Shown here piece by piece: positions 14,699 to 63,875 of a stretch of DNA of 64,000 bases. Position 1 is the first letter of the stretch; each line of letters starts with the position of its first letter. The notes below the pieces were generated by a model that was given only the letters and a program-made list of their open reading frames with translations, searched no databases and was not told where the DNA came from. Source of the DNA: Trueperaceae bacterium (GTDB lineage Bacteria; Deinococcota; Deinococci; Deinococcales; Trueperaceae); assembly GCA_965213925.1 (NCBI GenBank), contig CBDCAM010000001.1, forward strand, positions 1 through 64,000, in the 5' to 3' direction. The translations under genes and the position numbers were made by a program.

Positions 14699-15415
14699 TT
14701 ACGTGGCTCCCACCTCCATATACTCGGACGTGCTACTTGCTTTGAGCAGCTCGAGATTATCTATCACTCGGCGAATATGCTCGCGGGCTGCTTCCTCCGT
14801 ATAGTCGCTGTCACGGGCGCGCAGACCATCGAGTATGGCCTCGTGCTCGGTAAGCACGTCTTCGCGAGATCGCTGTACCTGCGTTGCTCGACCCGAAATT
14901 TCTAAGCGCGCAATACTCGAACGGCGGTAAAGTGCAAGCAACTCAGCGGCGATATTTGAGAAGCGAATAAGGTGCGTATTGTGCGACAGTGCGTAAATTT
15001 TCTCATGAAAACGCAAGTCTGCCACCCACAGGGTCATGGCTTTTTCCTCTTTGTCGGCTTCACGCCACACCTTCAAATACTCCTCAAGTTCACACACATC
15101 GGCATCTGTGATGTGCTCGGCGGCAAGCCGACTGGCGAGGGTGTCAAACGCTAAACGGCACTGATAGAGGTCGATCACGCTCTTTAGCGACAGTTGGGCA
15201 ACATAAAACCTGCCACTTTGATACTCGAGTAACCCACGCTCGCGGAGCATGATGAAAGCGTTGCTGACGGGCGTACGACTAACATTGAGGTTGCTGGCGA
15301 CCTCGGACTCCACGAGAAGTGAGCCTGGTCGATAGTCGCCGCTCACAATCTTCTCTTTCAGTAGTTCGTAAATCTGCTCCCCTAGGGTAGGCCCCTTAGA
15401 AACAACGGTATGCAT
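14699..15415 (-). CDS. GntR-family (FCD domain) transcriptional regulator
   Basis: wHTH VSRTPV, DLRFH...SHN and EHEAIL...EH motifs; AAGGAGA RBS. Confidence 0.92.
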   Translation of the reverse strand: MHTVVSKGPTLGEQIYELLKEKIVSGDYRPGSLLVESEVASNLNVSRTPVSNAFIMLRERGLLEYQSGRFYVAQLSLKSVIDLYQCRLAFDTLASRLAAEHITDADVCELEEYLKVWREADKEEKAMTLWVADLRFHEKIYALSHNTHLIRFSNIAAELLALYRRSSIARLEISGRATQVQRSREDVLTEHEAILDGLRARDSDYTEEAAREHIRRVIDNLELLKASSTSEYMEVGAT

Positions 15416-15442
15416 CTATCTCCTTATTTCAGAGTTTAATCA

Positions 15443-15466
15443 TTACATGCTGCATGCAGAATACAA
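15443..15466. promoter_or_regulatory. Candidate GntR operator
   Basis: Minus strand TTGTATTCTGCATGCAGCATGTAA: palindrome CTGCATGCAG plus heptad repeats, lying between the promoter and the gntR start. Confidence 0.55.
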
Positions 15467-15475
15467 CGTTTTGAA

Positions 15476-15504
15476 AGTTTATTCGGTTTTTTGAATATTG
15501 TCAA
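15476..15504 (-). promoter_or_regulatory. sigma70-type promoter of the gntR operon
   Basis: TTGACA (15504-15499), 17-bp spacer, TAAACT (15481-15476). Confidence 0.75.
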
Positions 15505-15667
15505 TAGCCAACTCGCTTACTTTTTTGTATTAACCTCGGATGCTAGGGGATAAGCAACCTTCTCGGACTCGCATCCGAGCACAATCATTGCCGTAAAGTT
15601 CGCCTAGCACGTAAATACCTAAGTTCTCTACATCTTTGAGCGAACGGCTTTGTCTGTATAACAGGGG

Positions 15668-15825
15668 TAGCTGCTAGGGCGAGGTGTGAACCAGGCGTTG
15701 TCTGCCTCTAATGGCTTGAATGTGAGATTTCCCCTCGCCCTTAAGCAGCAAAAAGCGACTCGTTGCTTGATACCAGGCTGCTGACCTAGCTCAATCTGTT
15801 ACAGACGTGCACGAGTCGCTTCACA
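15668..15825 (+). ncRNA. IS110 bridge RNA (target-binding and donor-binding loops); ends approximate
   Basis: Stem 15670-15684/15733-15749 encloses GGCGTTGTC and AATGTGA; stem 15753-15763/15811-15821 encloses ATACCAGGCT and TACAGA; these match the target and donor junctions. Confidence 0.85.
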
Positions 15826-15844
15826 CCACCTTGGGAGGTCGTGC

Positions 15845-16804
15845 ATGTCCAGTATACAGAGGCTCATTACTATCGGTGTTGACCCGCATCCCACCACACA
15901 TACCGCTGCTGCGCTTGACGAGACCGGCAAAGTTTTGGAAAGTCTGACAGTCAGCCACAGCAGCAAAGGACTACAGAAGCTCGAAACGTGGGCGCAGGGT
16001 TTTGAGAAGCGGCGCTGGGCAGTTGAAGGTATCGGCAACGCCTATATCTACCCCTTCGTGGTGTCGTTACTCGGGGAGGGTGAAAAGGTCTTTGCTATCT
16101 CGCCTAATTTGACGAGCCAGTACCGAGCTAGGGGCAACCAGATGAAGAGCGATGAAGTGGATGCGGCTAACGCGGCCCGCGCCCTGCTTGCTAATCCCAC
16201 GCTCGGACCCTACCAACCTTCAGCGCCTCAGAAACAGGCTCAAGAGCTGACCCGGCACTATCAGCGGCTCAGAACCCAACTCAAGGCGAACGAGATGGCG
16301 ATGAAAGAGGTGGACGCAAGCATCAAAGCTCCGCTGCAGAGCGCCATCACGGGCTTGAAACAGGCTCTGGCTACTTTGGAAAAGCAGATGAAGGCTCTTG
16401 CTAAGAAATACGCTGCCCCGCTACTGGCCGAGCGGGGTGTCGGTCCTGTGGTGGCTTCGCTCCTGCTGGCCGAGGCGGGCTCGCCCGAGCGCTTCTCTTC
16501 TCAAGATGCCTTTGCCCTTTACGCGGGTTGCGCTCCCTTATCTAGGAGTTCCGGCAGAACAGCCAGAGTGCAGGTGAACTACAAAGGCAACAGAAGGCTC
16601 AACTACGCTGTTCACGTCGTTGCCTTAAATCGCATGCGGACCGACCAAAGAACTAAGGCCTTTCTAGCGCGTAAGAAAAACGAAGGGAAAACCCAGCGTG
16701 AGGCGATGCGCTGTCTCAAGACTTACATCGCTCGTGAACTTTTCGGGAAACTCAAGCAACTCAATCTACCACCGCTCGTCGCTCTTTATCCTGACGGGGC
16801 TTGA
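15845..16804 (+). CDS. IS110-family DEDD recombinase/transposase
   Basis: IGVD, AVE, KSDEVDA, GVGP, YAGCAP...SSG and GNRRL motifs; GGAGG RBS. Confidence 0.95.
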   Translation: MSSIQRLITIGVDPHPTTHTAAALDETGKVLESLTVSHSSKGLQKLETWAQGFEKRRWAVEGIGNAYIYPFVVSLLGEGEKVFAISPNLTSQYRARGNQMKSDEVDAANAARALLANPTLGPYQPSAPQKQAQELTRHYQRLRTQLKANEMAMKEVDASIKAPLQSAITGLKQALATLEKQMKALAKKYAAPLLAERGVGPVVASLLLAEAGSPERFSSQDAFALYAGCAPLSRSSGRTARVQVNYKGNRRLNYAVHVVALNRMRTDQRTKAFLARKKNEGKTQREAMRCLKTYIARELFGKLKQLNLPPLVALYPDGA

Positions 16805-16868
16805 CAAAGTTATACCAGGCTCACATTAACTCCGCGGTAGTTAGGGTGTCGTGTTAGGGTGGCCTCCC

Positions 16869-17570
16869 GTGAGTAGCGCCCTCTACAAACGCCACCGCTT
16901 CCCCGCTGAGATCATCAGCCACTGCGTCTGGCTCTACCACCGCTTCTGCCTTTCGTTCCGAGACGTTGAGGAACTGATGTTCGAGCGGGGCGTTGTGCTG
17001 AGTTATGAGACCGTCAGGCGCTGGTGTTTGAAGTTCGGGGGTGAGTACGCGGGAAGGCTCAAGCGCCGCAGGGCGCAGCCAGGAGACAAATGGCACGTCG
17101 ACGAGGTTTTCCTGAGCATCAACGGCGAATGGCGCTACTTGTGGCGGGCGGTCGACCAAGATGGCAACACCCTCGACATCCTGGTGACAAAGAGGCGCGA
17201 CAAGCGTGCGGCCAAGCGCTTCTTTCGCAAGCTGCTCCGGGCTCACGCTAAACCGAGGGTGGTTGTCACTGACAAACTACGCAGCTACGGGGCGGCGCTC
17301 AAAAAGCTGTTGCCCAACACCGAGCACCGCCAGAGCCGCTACCTCAACAACCGAGCCGAATGTTCGCACCAGCGGACCAGGCGACGAGAACGGGCGCTCC
17401 AGCGTTTCAAGTCCTCCGGCCACGCCCAACGCTTCCTGTCCGTGTTCGAACCCCTCAACACCCACTTCCGCCCGCCCCGCCACCTCCTCAAGGCCAGCCA
17501 CTATCGTCAGAAGATGCAGGAGTGCTTCTCGGCCTGGCGTGAAGTGACCGAGCAGCAGACAGGAGCCTGA
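16869..17570 (+). CDS. IS6-family transposase
   Basis: YKRHRFP, WHVDE, YLWRAVD, VTDKL and NNRAE motifs. Confidence 0.93.
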   Translation: MSSALYKRHRFPAEIISHCVWLYHRFCLSFRDVEELMFERGVVLSYETVRRWCLKFGGEYAGRLKRRRAQPGDKWHVDEVFLSINGEWRYLWRAVDQDGNTLDILVTKRRDKRAAKRFFRKLLRAHAKPRVVVTDKLRSYGAALKKLLPNTEHRQSRYLNNRAECSHQRTRRRERALQRFKSSGHAQRFLSVFEPLNTHFRPPRHLLKASHYRQKMQECFSAWREVTEQQTGA

Positions 17571-17646
17571 AAAGAGACCCTTTCAGTAGTCGGCGATGGA
17601 GCTTAGCGGTTGCTACAGCAAGTTAATGTGACAAAGCCCCTGCCCC

Positions 17647-18537
17647 GAGACTGTAAAGTTGTGCTGGAGTTATGGCGAACGCCGAGGGGCTGGTACGTCG
17701 AGTTTCATCCCCTACACCGCTCCAGCCGTGGTTCGCAGCTCCGCCGCCAGCCACGAGAAGGTCGCCACCTCTGACTTTGAACGCTCGTGAACCGAACTTG
17801 GTGCGCGCTGATGCGGTGGGCGGACGTCGCCGCGCCGCCTGAGCGAGTTCGATGCCCTCCAGCAAGCGCTGCCCGGTTTCGACAGAGGCTAAGCTGCGCA
17901 TCGGCCGTGTCCGGTCCTTGACCGGGACATGTGAGCGTTCGACCGGCTTGGTGGTGAGCGCCCGCTTACGGTGGAACCCGGTGCGGCGGTGCTTCGCCTT
18001 TGGCGCGTGGCGTTTCATTGCCCGAAGGTAACCACGATGCTTGTCGGTGGTAACCTCGTCGGGCACAACACCGCGGCGTTCAATCGCCTGTTCAGAAAAC
18101 GCTTCGGCGCTCTCCGGGTCGCGTTTCTCGCGCAACAATATGTCCATGACTTGTCCCGTCTCGTCCACGAACCAGCACGAGCCGACCCGCCTGGCGTACC
18201 TCCTTGCCGCTTCGGCTAAGAGCATGCCGAACTTCTGTACCCAGTCCGCTACCGTCTGCTGGGACACGTCCGTTCCACGCTCGGCCAGCCTTCGCGGACG
18301 TTCGCGGCTGAAAGCCGGTAGCGGAAGTACCAGCGTACGGCCATCATAATCACGTCCTGGGGCCAGCGGTGCTTCGTGAAGGGCGTGCCGGTGCGGTCGG
18401 TGAAGCTGTGCCTGCACGCCGAGCAGCGGTAGCGCTGTTTCTTGGCGCGGTCTCGTCCGTCTTTATGGGTCCTGGTGCTTGAGCAGTGGGGGCAAGCTGG
18501 CATGCCCGACCCTACCCCAGCACAACTTTGCAGTCTC
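17647..18537 (-). mobile_element. Degenerate IS6-family element (zinc-ribbon type); transposase from ATG 18503 is frameshifted and internally deleted
   Basis: 21-bp IRs GAGACTG(T/C)AAAGTTGTGCTGG at 17647-17667 and 18517-18537; CPHC...CSAC N-terminus; frameshift near 18295; WFVDET joined directly to GQVMDIL. Confidence 0.82.
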
Positions 18538-18580
18538 CGGTTGCGCGCTCGCTTGCATGCCCTCTCCTTAAGTGTTCGCT

Positions 18581-18991
18581 TCAAGTGTTAGTAGGCGGGA
18601 TGATTTTTACGGACGGGTCCCCGCGTAGGGCCTGTTCGGCCCCGGCGGGCGCGTAGACGACGATGAGGCGCATCGGCTCGCCCCCGCGGTTGACGGTCGC
18701 GTGGTAGACGCCCTGGGGAATCCAGATGCAGTCCCCGGCTTTGACCCGTACCGTTTCCTGGTCGTCCAACATCTGGTCGCCTTCGCCCGACAACACGTAG
18801 ATAACTTCGTCCGCCGCCGGGTGATGATGCCGCACGTGCCCCTGATCGGGGTGAAGCTCTACGTAGCCGAAGCTAAACGACCTTGCGCCGGTCACGTTTT
18901 CCTCGCTCAACATGCGGATGTCTCCCCAGTCGAAGACGAGCGTGTCGACGTCTTCTTCTCTTGTTACCGTGCAGCGGCCTATCTCTTTCAT
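18581..18991 (-). CDS. Cupin-domain protein
   Basis: HHHPAADEVIYVLSGEG and GDCIWIPQGVYH cupin motifs; GAGGA RBS. Confidence 0.88.
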   Translation of the reverse strand: MKEIGRCTVTREEDVDTLVFDWGDIRMLSEENVTGARSFSFGYVELHPDQGHVRHHHPAADEVIYVLSGEGDQMLDDQETVRVKAGDCIWIPQGVYHATVNRGGEPMRLIVVYAPAGAEQALRGDPSVKIIPPTNT

Positions 18992-19004
18992 GTGTCCTCA
19001 ACTC

Positions 19005-19034
19005 TGACCTACACTCTGATGACCTACACTTTGA
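19005..19034. repeat. 15-bp tandem duplication at a gene end
   Basis: TGACCTACACT(C/T)TGA x2. Confidence 0.75.
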
Positions 19035-19596
19035 TGGCTTTGAACCGGGCGGCCTGGGTCTCGATGGCCTTTTCGGTGGCGAGGCGTTCGATGCTCGAGG
19101 CCCCGAAAAAGCCCACCACGCCGTTGATACGCTCGAGCACGTACTGCGCGTCCTCGGGTTCGGCGATGGGGCCGCCGTGACAAATCACCATCACGTCGTC
19201 TCTCACCGCTTTGGCGGCGTCGTGGACGGCCTGGATTCGCTCGGCGCTCTCGTCTAGAGTCAGCGCGGTGGTGGCGCCGATGGAGCCTTTGGTGGTCAAC
19301 CCCATATGGGCGACGAGCAGGTCCGCGCCCGCCCGGGTCATCTTGACGGCGTCTTCCGGGCCGAACACGTAAGGGCAGGTGAGGAGGTCCAGGTCGTGCG
19401 CTTGCTGGATCATGTCGACCTCGAGGTCGTAACCCATGCCCGTCTCCTCCAAGCCGGTGCGCAAGCTGCCGTCGATGAGGCCGACCGTCGGGAAGTTCTG
19501 TACCCCGTCGAAGCCCGCCGCCTTGACCTCTCCTAGAAAGCGCGGCATGAGCCGGAAGGGATCGGTGCCGCAGACGCCCGCCAAAACGAGCGTATG
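19024..19596 (-). pseudogene. 5'-truncated TIM-barrel signal transduction / PEP-hydrolase-like protein
   Basis: [31 protein letters not shown] and GFFGASS.ERL motifs; in-frame stop immediately upstream, N-terminal part absent. Confidence 0.8.
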
Positions 19597-19808
19597 CTAT
19601 GCGGGAAGTATACAACAACTGGCTAAGTCGGGTAAGGGAGATGTTACCGCAGGAACCGAAGACGAGACGGGTGAGCCTGGTGAACTTAGTAGTGGGTATT
19701 TTTTAGCAAAAGCGTACACTAGTGGGTCATCCGTCACGGTTGTAGCCAATGAGGGCTAGGGGTGCTAAAGTAGGTGCTGTCAACTTAGGCAGTAAATAAG
19801 GAGTCGGC

Positions 19809-20033
19809 ATGGCGCGTCCACCTAAAGACCCGTTACGGCCTTTGAGCTTAGAAGAACGTCAAACCCTGGAACAGCTCAGTCGTTCTTTGCGTGAAAGCGC
19901 GGCTAAAGTGGCTCGCGCCAAAGCTTTGCTCTGGGTTGCCGAGGGGAAAATCTATAGCGAGGCCGCACGTTTGGTCGGACGTAAGTCGGGCGACGCGGTT
20001 GCCAAGGAGAGCACAAAAAAGCGTGGGAGGTAG
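19809..20033 (+). pseudogene. IS630-family transposase N-terminal fragment
   Basis: [12 protein letters not shown]...ERQTL...RAKALL HTH start, then truncated; possible terminus TA-CACTAGTGGGTCAT near 19715. Confidence 0.6.
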
Positions 20034-20062
20034 TTGAGGGCGCACCTTTCTATATGATGCGC

Positions 20063-20684
20063 GGCCTTGTCACGTTAACTTCTTCTAACCACGCTAATTA
20101 GGGTTTTCTGGTGTAAACAGGCACGTCTACTTATGCGGGTGCTGCCAGCTCGGCAACTTCACCCCAGATCGAGAACCGCTCGCGCATCTTCTGGCGGTAA
20201 TAGCTAGCTTTGAGGAGGTGGCGGGGCGGGCGGAAGTGGGTATTGAGGGGTTCGAACACGGACAGGAAGCGCCCTGCATGGCCGGAGGACTTGAAGCGCT
20301 GGAGCGCCCGTTCTCGTCGCCTGGTCCGCTGGTGCGAACACTCAACCCGGTTGTTAAGGTAGCGGCTCTGGCGATGCTCGGTCCGGGGCAACAGCTCTTT
20401 AAGCGCCGCTCCGTAGCTGCGTAGTTTATCCGTAACAACCACCCTCGGTTTAGCGTGAGCCCGGAGCAATTTGCGAAAAAAGCGCTTGGCCGCACGCTTA
20501 TCGCGCTTGCTCGTCACCAGGATGTCGAGCGTGTTGCCTTCTTGATCCACGGCCCGCCATAAGTAGCGCCTTTCACCGTTGATGCTCAAGAAAACCTCGT
20601 CGACGTGCCATTTGTTTCCTGGTTGCGCCCTGCGACACTTGAGCCTCCTTGCATGTTCGCCCCCGAACTTCAAACACCAGCGCC
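20063..20684 (-). mobile_element. 5'-truncated IS6 copy, close paralog of the 16869-17570 transposase
   Basis: Near-identical protein from KFGGE onward (ORF 20131-20673); IR GGCCTTGTCACGTTAAC at 20063-20079. Confidence 0.88.
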
Positions 20685-20760
20685 GTCGTTAACGCTTGAG
20701 CGTAGCGCACCTGCCCCAGCTAGAGTAGGAATGTGCCAGTCTGGTACAGGCTCTAAGGCC

Positions 20761-21694
20761 GGTTCTGGCAGGACTCGTTATGGGAGCGTGTTAGCCTTGC
20801 CCGATGACCTGCCCCCACTGCTCCCATGACCAGACAAGAGACCTCCAACAACCAACGAAACTCGGTTATAAACGCTACCGCTGTGATGGCTGCGGTAGGA
20901 CGTTTAACGAGAGAACGGGGAGCGCTTACAACTTTCTCGAGTTTCCGACCGACATCGTGCTGCTCGTGGTTCTTTGGCGGCTCAGGTATAACCTCACGCT
21001 TAGAGACCTCTCCGAGATGTTTCTGGAGCGAGGCTTTGTATTTACCCATGAAGCGGTCAGGGAATGGGAGAGGCGTTTCGCCCCTATCATGGCCGAGGAG
21101 CTGAGGAAACGGCGTAGCGGCAACCGGGCTAAGAAGTGGCATGTGGACGAGACGTATCTGAAGGTCAAGGGCAAGTGGTGCTACCTCTACCGAGCTACCG
21201 ATAAAGAGGGCAACCTTGTTGACGTGTGGCTGAGCAAAAAGCGCGATATGGAGGCGGCCAAGCGGTTCTTCGAGAAGGCGCGCTCTACCGCAGGCGAACC
21301 TCCCGAAAAGGTCACCACCGACGGTCATGACGCCTATCCTCGCGCTGTTCGAGAAACGCTGGGAGAGAAGGTTCAGCACCGCACCAGCCGCTACCTGAAC
21401 AACCGGCTCGAGCAAGACCACAGAGGTATCAAGGGTCGCTATAAGGGAATGCGAGGCTTCAAGAACTTCAACTCCGCCTCAAGGTTCTGCAACGCCTATG
21501 ATGGATTAAGGGACTACTTCAGGCCGCGAAGCCGTCCTTACGAAACTCTACCCCTTCCCGAGCAGCGCAGCCTCTACCTCACAAGGACGCAGTCGCTGAT
21601 GGCTGCTGTGGGAGGAATGTAGCCAGGCGTTTTTGGTGAAGCAGAGAAATGAAGTGTCCGCTCTGCTTCTGCCTGAGCCAGTTCTGACAGAACC
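20761..21694 (+). mobile_element. IS6-family element
   Basis: IRs GGTTCTGGCAGGACT / GGTTCTGTCAGAACT (13/15 match). Confidence 0.8.
20804..21622 (+). CDS. IS6-family transposase with N-terminal zinc ribbon
   Basis: CPHC...CDGC, WHVDETY, YLYRA.D, TTDG and NNRLEQDHR motifs. Confidence 0.92.
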   Translation: MTCPHCSHDQTRDLQQPTKLGYKRYRCDGCGRTFNERTGSAYNFLEFPTDIVLLVVLWRLRYNLTLRDLSEMFLERGFVFTHEAVREWERRFAPIMAEELRKRRSGNRAKKWHVDETYLKVKGKWCYLYRATDKEGNLVDVWLSKKRDMEAAKRFFEKARSTAGEPPEKVTTDGHDAYPRAVRETLGEKVQHRTSRYLNNRLEQDHRGIKGRYKGMRGFKNFNSASRFCNAYDGLRDYFRPRSRPYETLPLPEQRSLYLTRTQSLMAAVGGM

Positions 21695-22033
21695 GGCTGG
21701 GGCGCAGTGATGTGCCCCGGCTACCCGCCACAACCGCGCGCAGCTGCACAGCTCGCTCAACTACGAAACACCCGACACTTTCGAGCTGTGCCAGCAATGT
21801 GCCAGCAAAAGGAGAAACTGGTGGTGAGCCTAACCGCTTAACGGTATACTTCGAGTGTCCAAGGTTTTAAGCCAAGCCCAGGTTGCTATTTCCATCCCAG
21901 GTGTCGCTACGCCAAAGACAGGTGCAAAGCAGAAATACCCATGCTAAGAGAGGTCGCTCCTGGTCATTTCGCAGCTTGTCACTATTCGGAGAGGCTCGAG
22001 CTGAGAGGGGTCGCGAGGCAGGAGGGTTAACTG

Positions 22034-63042: not shown

Positions 63043-63875
63043 GGTTGCGTCAAGTTGTTTGAGATGAGGTGACGTCTAGCTACGGCGGCCCGCTGCATCT
63101 GTAGCCCTTGCGGCCTTTTCTAGGAAGCTGACAGCGACAGCTCTGCCCATACCCCAAAATCGCTCGTCCAGTTGCGGCGGCGTAGGTTGGCGGGTGTGCG
63201 GGCACGGGTGTAACGGAAGAGATGGTTGACCTCGGCGTGGGTAAAGAGAAAACTTTGGGCACGACCCGAACCTCTAAAGCCTCGTTGCTGTCGTTCTTGG
63301 TCTCGCGTCGGCCGGTGGCTCTGCTCGACGAGGTTGTTCTGGCGCTCCGCCGCCGAGACGGTGACGTGCTCCGTCGCGCCTAGCTCGGGCAGCTCTCGAA
63401 GGGCAGCACCATAGCTCCTAAGGCCGTCGGTCACGATCTGCTCGGGGACATCTTGCTCGTCCAGCAGTCTGCGGAAAAAGCGCTTGGCCGCCTCTGTGTC
63501 ACGCTCCTTTTGCATGAACACGTCCAGCACCTCGCCATGCTCATCCACTGCCCGCCAGAGCCAATGGACCACACCGCCTAGCACTATACGCATCTCATCC
63601 AGGTGCCACGTCCTACCCCGCCTCGGCTTACGCTGACGCAGCGCCTCGGCTATGGCGGGTCCGAACCTGGCGCACCACGCCCTTACCGTCTCGTGACTCA
63701 CATCAACGCCCCGCTCGAAGAGCAGCTCCTGCACGTCCCTATACGAAAGCAGAAAGCGGTGGTAGAGGTAGACCGCATGCGAGATGACCGCTTTGGGGAA
63801 GCGGTAGCCCTTGGGTCGTTCGGCACTCTCGGTCATTGGGGCAGCCTAACCCATCTCAAACAACTTGACGCAACC
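63043..63875 (-). mobile_element. IS6-family element
   Basis: Perfect 24-bp IRs GGTTGCGTCAAGTTGTTTGAGATG at 63043-63066 and 63852-63875. Confidence 0.92.
63120..63836 (-). CDS. IS6-family transposase
   Basis: GYRFP, WHLDE, WLWRAVD, VTDGL and NNLVEQSH motifs. Confidence 0.92.
   Translation of the reverse strand: MTESAERPKGYRFPKAVISHAVYLYHRFLLSYRDVQELLFERGVDVSHETVRAWCARFGPAIAEALRQRKPRRGRTWHLDEMRIVLGGVVHWLWRAVDEHGEVLDVFMQKERDTEAAKRFFRRLLDEQDVPEQIVTDGLRSYGAALRELPELGATEHVTVSAAERQNNLVEQSHRPTRDQERQQRGFRGSGRAQSFLFTHAEVNHLFRYTRARTPANLRRRNWTSDFGVWAELSLSAS

Follow-up and report, generated by a model that had tools for sequence, protein, structure and literature searches.

Organization of the locus

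The 64-kb window analyzed here, meaning the whole stretch of DNA from position 1 to position 64,000 of contig CBDCAM010000001.1 of a Trueperaceae bacterium, is the start of a 127.7-kb contig in a genome of 4.75 Mb. It contains an IS110-family element that lies within the left end repeat of an IS6-family insertion sequence, referred to here as copy A. A cluster of IS6-family sequences (Pfam PF13610) spans positions 15646-21700 and also includes copies B, C, and D; copy E lies separately, near the far end of the window. The coordinates and main properties of these features are summarized in Table 1.

Table 1. Features of the IS110-family element, its predicted bridge RNA, and the IS6-family copies in the window
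Feature	Position	Strand	Properties
IS110-family element	15655-16822	+	1168 bp with one copy of the TC core counted; single-copy
Recombinase gene	15845-16804	+	319 aa; PF01548 (1e-17) and PF02371 (1.2e-16), both above curated cut-offs
Bridge RNA (predicted)	15670-15819	+	Stem-loop 1 (15670-15749, target loop) and stem-loop 2 (15755-15819, donor loop)
Left target guide	15694-15702	+	GGCGUUGUC; 5' side of loop 1; same sense as the left target
Right target guide	15719-15725	+	AAUGUGA; 3' side of loop 1; complementary to TCACATT
Left donor guide	15770-15779	+	AUACCAGGCU; same sense as the element right end (16812-16821)
Right donor guide	15800-15805	+	UACAGA; complementary to TCTGTA (core plus first left-end bases)
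TTGACA in the right end	16801-16806	+	In a circle, 18 bases ahead of TATAAC (15657-15662)
Outer 9 bases of copy A left end repeat (left target)	15646-15654	+	GGCTTTGTC; core TC at 15653-15654
IS6 copy A body	16823-17638	+	Rest of the left end repeat, transposase gene, right end repeat
Copy A transposase gene	16851-17570	+	239 aa; PF13610 at 2.7e-41
Copy A right end repeat	17620-17638		Equals the rejoined left repeat over 18 bases (17621-17638)
Empty cognate site 1, copy A right end	17625-17638	-	Same 14-mer as the used target
Empty cognate site 2, copy C end	20063-20076	+	GGCCTTGTCACGTT; mismatch at position 4 plus one wobble
IS6 copy B	17623-18584	-	PF13610; gene broken into two overlapping frames
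IS6 copy C remnant gene	20131-20673	-	Truncated; end repeat 20063-20081 beside the 3' end of the gene
IS6 copy D	20804-21622		PF13610
IS6 copy E	63043-63875 (gene 63120-63836)	-	PF13610; both ends GGTTGCGTCAAGTT

The nine bases to the left of the IS110-family element (15646-15654, GGCTTTGTC) and the bases from 16823 onward (ACATTAACT...) rejoin into an 18-base string. Reverse-complemented, the right end of copy A (17621-17638) agrees with it at 18 of 18 positions. An earlier note on this DNA had described the right repeat as identical to the used target, and rejoining gave exactly that result. The insertion point lies after base 9 of the left end repeat of copy A, and the core dinucleotide TC, corresponding to repeat positions 8-9, is present at both junctions (15653-15654 and 16821-16822). 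At its left end the element reads TGTATAAC and at its right end ATACCAGGCTC, and the two show no inverted-repeat relationship. Relatives at 44-54% protein identity keep the same ends (left TGTATAAC, right ATACCAGGnTC), and the boundaries of the element are therefore fixed independently of the IS6 sequence. BLAST analysis of the element against its own genome returned one match.

Once rejoined, copy A has a length of 825 bp and carries the repeat GGCTTTGTCACATTAACT at both ends, with the GG start and the TGT at positions 6-8 that are features of the IS6/IS26 family. The 8-mers flanking it are unlike (GAGCGAAC on the left and CCTGCCCC on the right), that is, it has no 8-base target duplication. 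Copies of IS6-family elements often lack such a duplication following cointegrate resolution, and its absence around copy A is for this reason not decisive.

The recombinase retains D13, E61, D103, D106, and S236, which we take to be the catalytic residues; E61, D103, D106, and S236 are invariant across 18 aligned sequences, and D13 is present in 16 of the 18. Recombinase relatives at 76-94% identity (P0001-P0014) are known as proteins alone. In two of them, P0008 and P0013, leucine replaces the first catalytic aspartate (GALPHP versus GVDPHP), and these may, judging from their sequences, be inactive copies.

Upon circle formation, the TTGACA of the right end and the TATAAC of the left end would be brought together as a putative junction promoter of the kind known for the family (PMC11208160), and relatives hold TTGACA at an equal distance from the right end. 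An outward promoter running from the same TTGACA into the IS6 gene was rejected as unsupported: the candidate -10 hexamers CATTAA and ATTAAC in the IS6, judged by eye, are without the key positions. In the related loci L014 and L022/L023, approximately 300-400 extra bases follow the stop codon before the right end is reached, compared with 18 in the window element.

Bridge RNA and guide loops

Folding of positions 15668-15832, within the 190-base left (5') end of the element, gave -64.3 kcal/mol (z = -4.87), and none of 200 shuffled sequences folded as well. The consensus of 19 sequences (the window element and 18 homologues) contained the same two stem-loops, with compensatory changes in 21 of its 29 pairs and with the guide blocks unpaired. 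The left donor guide block was conserved in all 19 aligned homologues and the CAGA block of the right donor guide was likewise conserved among homologues, while both target guides fell in alignment columns homologous to the guides of relatives. A search of Rfam 15 with positions 15000-21500 at E values up to 1 found no relevant family, returning only two weak, irrelevant matches.

The target guides encode the 14-mer GGCGTTGTCACATT, which matches the flanks of the element at 13 of 14 positions. At either end of copy A, position 4 is the sole difference (guide G versus bottom-strand A). In IS621, as set out in the description of its target loop, the 5' side of the loop has the same sense as the left target and the 3' side is complementary to the right target (PMC11208160). 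The placement and reading of the guides proposed in the earlier note fit this strand and loop rule (PMC11208160), with the core included in the pairing of the right target guide.

For comparison among relatives, guides were read from alignment columns alone at 26 related loci with the left-end motif no more than 330 bases upstream of the gene; loci that were too short or had no left-end motif were left out, and the 26 loci yielded 18 unique guide/site combinations. Left guides matched their own flank at 6.06 of 7 non-core bases and the flanks of other elements at 2.97 of 7, and right guides matched their own flank at 4.89 of 5 bases and those of others at 2.43 of 5 (nine combinations with a known right flank). 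This covariation supports the guide reading. Left matches were perfect in 5 of the 18 combinations, with one difference in 9 and two differences in 4; since only five were perfect, the single position-4 mismatch of the window element is ordinary for its group.

We consider it likely that this intact-looking IS110-family element with a 5' bridge RNA was put into the IS6 left end repeat by RNA-guided site-specific recombination. The target-binding loop 1 would guide insertion into the IS6 repeat at the TC core, after base 9, and the second loop would recognize the joined ends of the element itself. A chance juxtaposition, with the element inserted regardless of the IS6 repeat, is scarcely credible: nothing beyond the single copy speaks for it, whereas it is contradicted by the 13 of 14 agreement between guide and flank, by the covariation of guides with flanks in relatives, and by the recurrence of the same position within the repeat at the five loci described below.

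Related elements at IS6 ends

Five loci, the window included, adjoin an IS6 transposase gene on the right-end side, and in all five the insertion lies after repeat base 9, with the outer nine repeat bases always on the left-guide side (5/5). Two of these insertions are in left ends (the window and L068) and three are in right ends (L001, L022, and L079). L001 consists of the 3' half of an element with an 80%-identical recombinase, and its right end abuts ACGTTAACTT, an IS6 right end repeat of the ACGTT variant. The IS6 at this locus shows 80-85% protein identity to copy A over two pieces and has an intact opposite end; the 5' half of the L001 element, and thus its guide, is missing from the assembly of that genome. 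At approximately 1059-1061 of L001, the IS6 gene was matched as two pieces in different frames, by a frameshift or an assembly error.

The more distant L022 element (49% identical) is inserted after base 9 of GGCACTGTC/AAGTTGA (the slash marks the insertion point), has the guides GGCAUUGUC and AACUUGA, and adjoins an IS6 that is 62% identical to copy A. L068 (53% identical) is inserted after base 9 of GGTTGCGTC/AAGTTAT beside an IS6 that is 75% identical to copy E of the window, and its guides match its own site perfectly. L079 adjoins an IS6 fragment. The guides of L014/L060 and L020/L033 (48-50% identical) are directed at GGCATTGTC-ACGTT, an A-type end variant, and the site of L014 has a G:T-type wobble against its own right guide. 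The ends of copy E (63043-63875) and of a second E-type copy in this genome (contig 2, 81287-82118) are exact targets of L068-type guides, and the L068-type IS110 lineage is absent from this genome.

The proposal of the earlier note that the guide tracks an IS6 subfamily was supported, with the 80%-identical L001 element at the same position of the other IS6 end (ACGTT variant) and more distant relatives in other IS6 subfamilies with covarying guides. Nested relatives (L007, L009, L010, L015, L017-L019, L021, and L041) have guides for another target (…ATGTC/YGGTTCTGC…); at the two loci of this target class that were checked, L018 and L010, no transposase gene lies beside the element.

A quick tree was built from 54 recombinases, leaving out matches shorter than 250 aa, rows with stops, identical proteins, and L080, L096, and L102. 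Nine of its ten IS6-targeting rows formed one clade (support 96).

Relatives of the window belong to Deinococcota. A scan of the genome collection gave one close relative with DNA, the L001 locus, and in a metagenome scan no relative exceeded 50% identity except for a fragment of 26 residues. No such close relatives were found in the viral collection, and 23 viral-contig matches to the junction pattern contained no IS110 or IS6 relative by tblastn. The plasmid collection yielded distant IS6 matches only, none of which covers the IS110 part.

Cognate sites in the window and in other genomes

The existence of repeated sites follows directly from end-repeat targeting, because they are the end repeats of paralogous elements, and two empty matching sites are to be expected of a target that is an inverted repeat. 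With the inverted end repeat of a small IS6 subfamily as the target, the genome offers further cognate sites automatically. There are two, both empty: the copy A right end, whose single mismatch is that of the used site, and the surviving end of the truncated paralogue, copy C, with a mismatch and a wobble. At the latter, a G stands opposite the guide G at position 4, and position 12 forms a dG:rU wobble.

These readings agree with the earlier note, which had named position 4 as the guide mismatch at both local repeats, the copy A right end and the copy C end, and had pointed to a G:U wobble in the repeat at 20063. Its claim that the remaining IS6 ends in the window match poorly also held: the ends of copies B, D, and E (17647/18537, 20761/21694, and 63043/63875) deviate from the guide at 6-8 of 14 positions, with 3-6 mismatches and 1-5 wobbles. 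The description of the target as multicopy did not hold, as the genome has three cognate ends and one IS110 copy.

Exact copies of the motif GGCNTTGTCACRTT in the 4.75-Mb genome number two, both inside the window, where no enrichment was seen when up to two mismatches were allowed (4 matches versus 2.88 expected). Across 364 Deinococcota genomes, the 17-base motif occurs seven times in two genomes, and the reversed control gave no occurrence. The earlier note had raised the prospect of matches lying mostly outside IS6 ends; all seven were at the ends of IS6 copies that are 82-100% identical in protein to copy A. An A at position 4, which leaves only a G:T-type wobble with the window guide, was found at both ends of one copy in another genome. 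This variant is, as the guide is read here, the best natural match for the window guide, and hints that the guide either drifted from A to G or arose on a copy with A at position 4.

It is possible, although we favor the opposite, that the empty sites are cognate on paper only, the element being immobile here or having been in the IS6 already when it arrived on the 128-kb replicon; their emptiness would then reflect history and not target availability. The single IS110 copy and the unused identical target 800 bp away fit this explanation. Low occupancy is moreover general: two of the nine ends of the A-type subfamily are occupied across the 364 genomes, the two split ends being counted, and in three genomes 16 E-type ends are empty (four here, eight in the genome of L068, and four in the third) compared with 2-3 occupied. 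Empty cognate ends are the rule. In the account of integrated IS621 copies, these express their bridge RNA weakly and excise inefficiently (PMC13626964). Against immobility stand the reading frame, catalytic residues, target guides, donor guides, and junction-promoter motifs, all of which are intact, and the independent insertion of relatives at both IS6 ends, which indicates that the lineage moves.

A comparable degree of doubt attaches to the site at 20063-20076, which may be unusable by this guide, leaving the right end of copy A as the sole real second target. IS621 strongly prefers perfect matches and tolerates double mismatches worse than single ones, although the same specificity data include 1-2 mismatches among its more frequent off-targets (PMC11208160). 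Natural pairings in the clade also speak for tolerance: 13 of the 18 guide/site pairs have one or two left-side differences, L014 occupies its site in spite of the wobble, and L001, whose guide is missing from the assembly, used an ACGTT end.

Predicted effect on the IS6 element

Through the insertion, GG at the outer edge and TGT at positions 6-8 lie 1168 bp away from the remainder of the IS6. In the IS26 family, according to the data on its end repeats, the repeat starts with GG and has an invariant G7 flanked by T, and a G-to-T change in TGT (positions 6-8) abolishes binding of Tnp26 (PMC8477213). As bases 1-9 of copy A, including GG and TGT, are split from base 10 onward, this end should be lost for in-place cleavage. 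The left end would presumably no longer be bound or cut in place and two-ended (copy-in) movement would be lost; reactions through the intact right end may continue. The disarming of the IS6 by insertion and its role as a "safe harbour", both put forward in the earlier note, are inferences that were weakened here: the IS26 work speaks for the loss of this end, and also for a targeted conservative reaction that goes on with one outer end inactivated.

That the IS6 is not disarmed in any meaningful sense, acting through its intact right end while the IS110 element rides a mobile plasmid-borne carrier, seems to us unlikely. A gap of 46 bases separates the IS110 gene from the intact IS6 transposase gene that follows it in the same orientation, and the targeted conservative reaction of IS26 is described as working at either end and as persisting with one outer end inactivated (PMC7885326). 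The right-end route, however, requires a second identical copy, which is not in this genome; the sole paralogue is truncated and has 88% DNA identity. The copy-in route requires two ends, and the left one is stripped of TGT and the outer GG.

Several points weigh against RNA-guided insertion followed by disarming of the carrier. The element is a single genomic copy with no activity seen, and its guide is imperfect against its own insertion site. Among the joints listed from four contig runs, neither a 15654-16823 joint nor a circle junction was present; contigs drop rare forms, so that this lack of a circle or empty-site joint says nothing about excision. In the quick tree, the window recombinase stands on a long branch (0.79) outside the clade of the other IS6-targeting elements, and because its placement there is unsure, no conclusion on the ancestry of IS6 targeting is drawn. 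Whether this guide could use the 20063 site is uncertain because IS621 shows low mismatch tolerance, and L001, which used an ACGTT end, offers no guide for comparison. The IS26 data on the effect on the IS6 come from a distant family member, and a one-ended reaction of the IS26 type would count against full disarming. Precise excision restoring the repeat, as the earlier note supposed, is doubtful: the reported excision of IS621 is less efficient than insertion (PMC13626964), and one preprint describes a single-strand copy-out after which the donor site is still intact.

Neighboring IS6 copies and flanking sequence

Copy C shares 88% DNA identity and 90% protein identity with copy A. Ahead of its end repeat, positions 19600-20062 contain a short open frame that runs into stop codons, and this region together with 17623-18584 looks like a graveyard of mobile-element fragments. 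On the outer side of copy A, contigs of run X1 covered the bin 15467-15633 at approximately 10 times the depth of the preceding bin. One X1 contig tracks the window to 15645, the exact outer edge of copy A, and then continues into unrelated sequence. The stretch 15467-15645 is unrepeated in this genome, and the contig may represent an IS6-free form of the locus in another organism of that sample.

Significance

The more interesting part of these results is that several lineages appear to have been reprogrammed among IS6 subfamilies at one fixed position of the repeat. A-type, E-type, and a third IS6 end type were each seen with their own matching guides. The fixed core of the clade and the neighboring guide bases coincide with the invariant G7-T8, which would make an escape mutation costly for the IS6. 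We tentatively suggest, as an idea that falls somewhat short of probable, that the whole bridge-RNA clade consists of specialized IS6 parasites whose guides are reprogrammed between IS6 subfamilies and which cripple DDE transposons on plasmids; because the IS6 transposase needs the G7-T8 part for binding, the target could not mutate away.

The locus is a natural case in which both bridge-RNA guides can be read against a target of known function, a transposase-binding end. Its relatives show natural reprogramming among IS6 subfamilies and tolerance of single mismatches and wobbles, which informs specificity beyond IS621, and the system bears on competition among mobile elements. If splitting of the end repeat immobilizes IS6-type elements, it would also be a natural precedent for RNA-guided switching off.

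Comparison with known systems

The window element resembles IS621 and the IS110 group, as described by Durrant et al. 2024 (PMC11208160), in its two-domain recombinase (PF01548 and PF02371), in a 5' non-coding end that encodes an RNA with two internal loops, and in a right-end -35 and a left-end -10 that would join in the circle. Unlike IS621, it has the core TC, not CT, and its target is an IS6-family end repeat, not REP; it is known from sequence alone. Copy A resembles IS26, in the features given by Harmer and Hall (PMC7885326; PMC8477213), in its PF13610 transposase, its length of approximately 825 bp, its GG start, and its TGT at positions 6-8. It differs in having A at repeat position 10, where IS26 has a conserved G, and in being without the 8-base duplication.

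In the titles and abstracts returned by full-text searches, no IS110-type element aimed at IS6-family ends was found, and the supplementary target tables of the 2024 papers may list such elements. IS4321 and IS5075 are said to target Tn21-family repeats and, like the window element, insert at a specific site and in a specific orientation within a repeat at the end of another transposon. They belong to the IS1111 group, have subterminal inverted repeats and a guide RNA region that follows the gene, and use a 38-bp repeat of the Tn3 family as their target, in all of which the window element differs. Insertion of IS4321 or IS5075 may block movement of the carrier. IS1383, which in work by Muller, Lauf and Hermann from 2001 reportedly integrates into the inverted repeats of IS1384, is likewise an IS110-family element that targets the end repeat of another insertion sequence; its host is Pseudomonas putida, its target element is a different one, and its description predates knowledge of guide RNAs. 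The targeting of other transposons' end repeats by IS110-family elements has been known since 2001, and the window case is a further example of this known habit.

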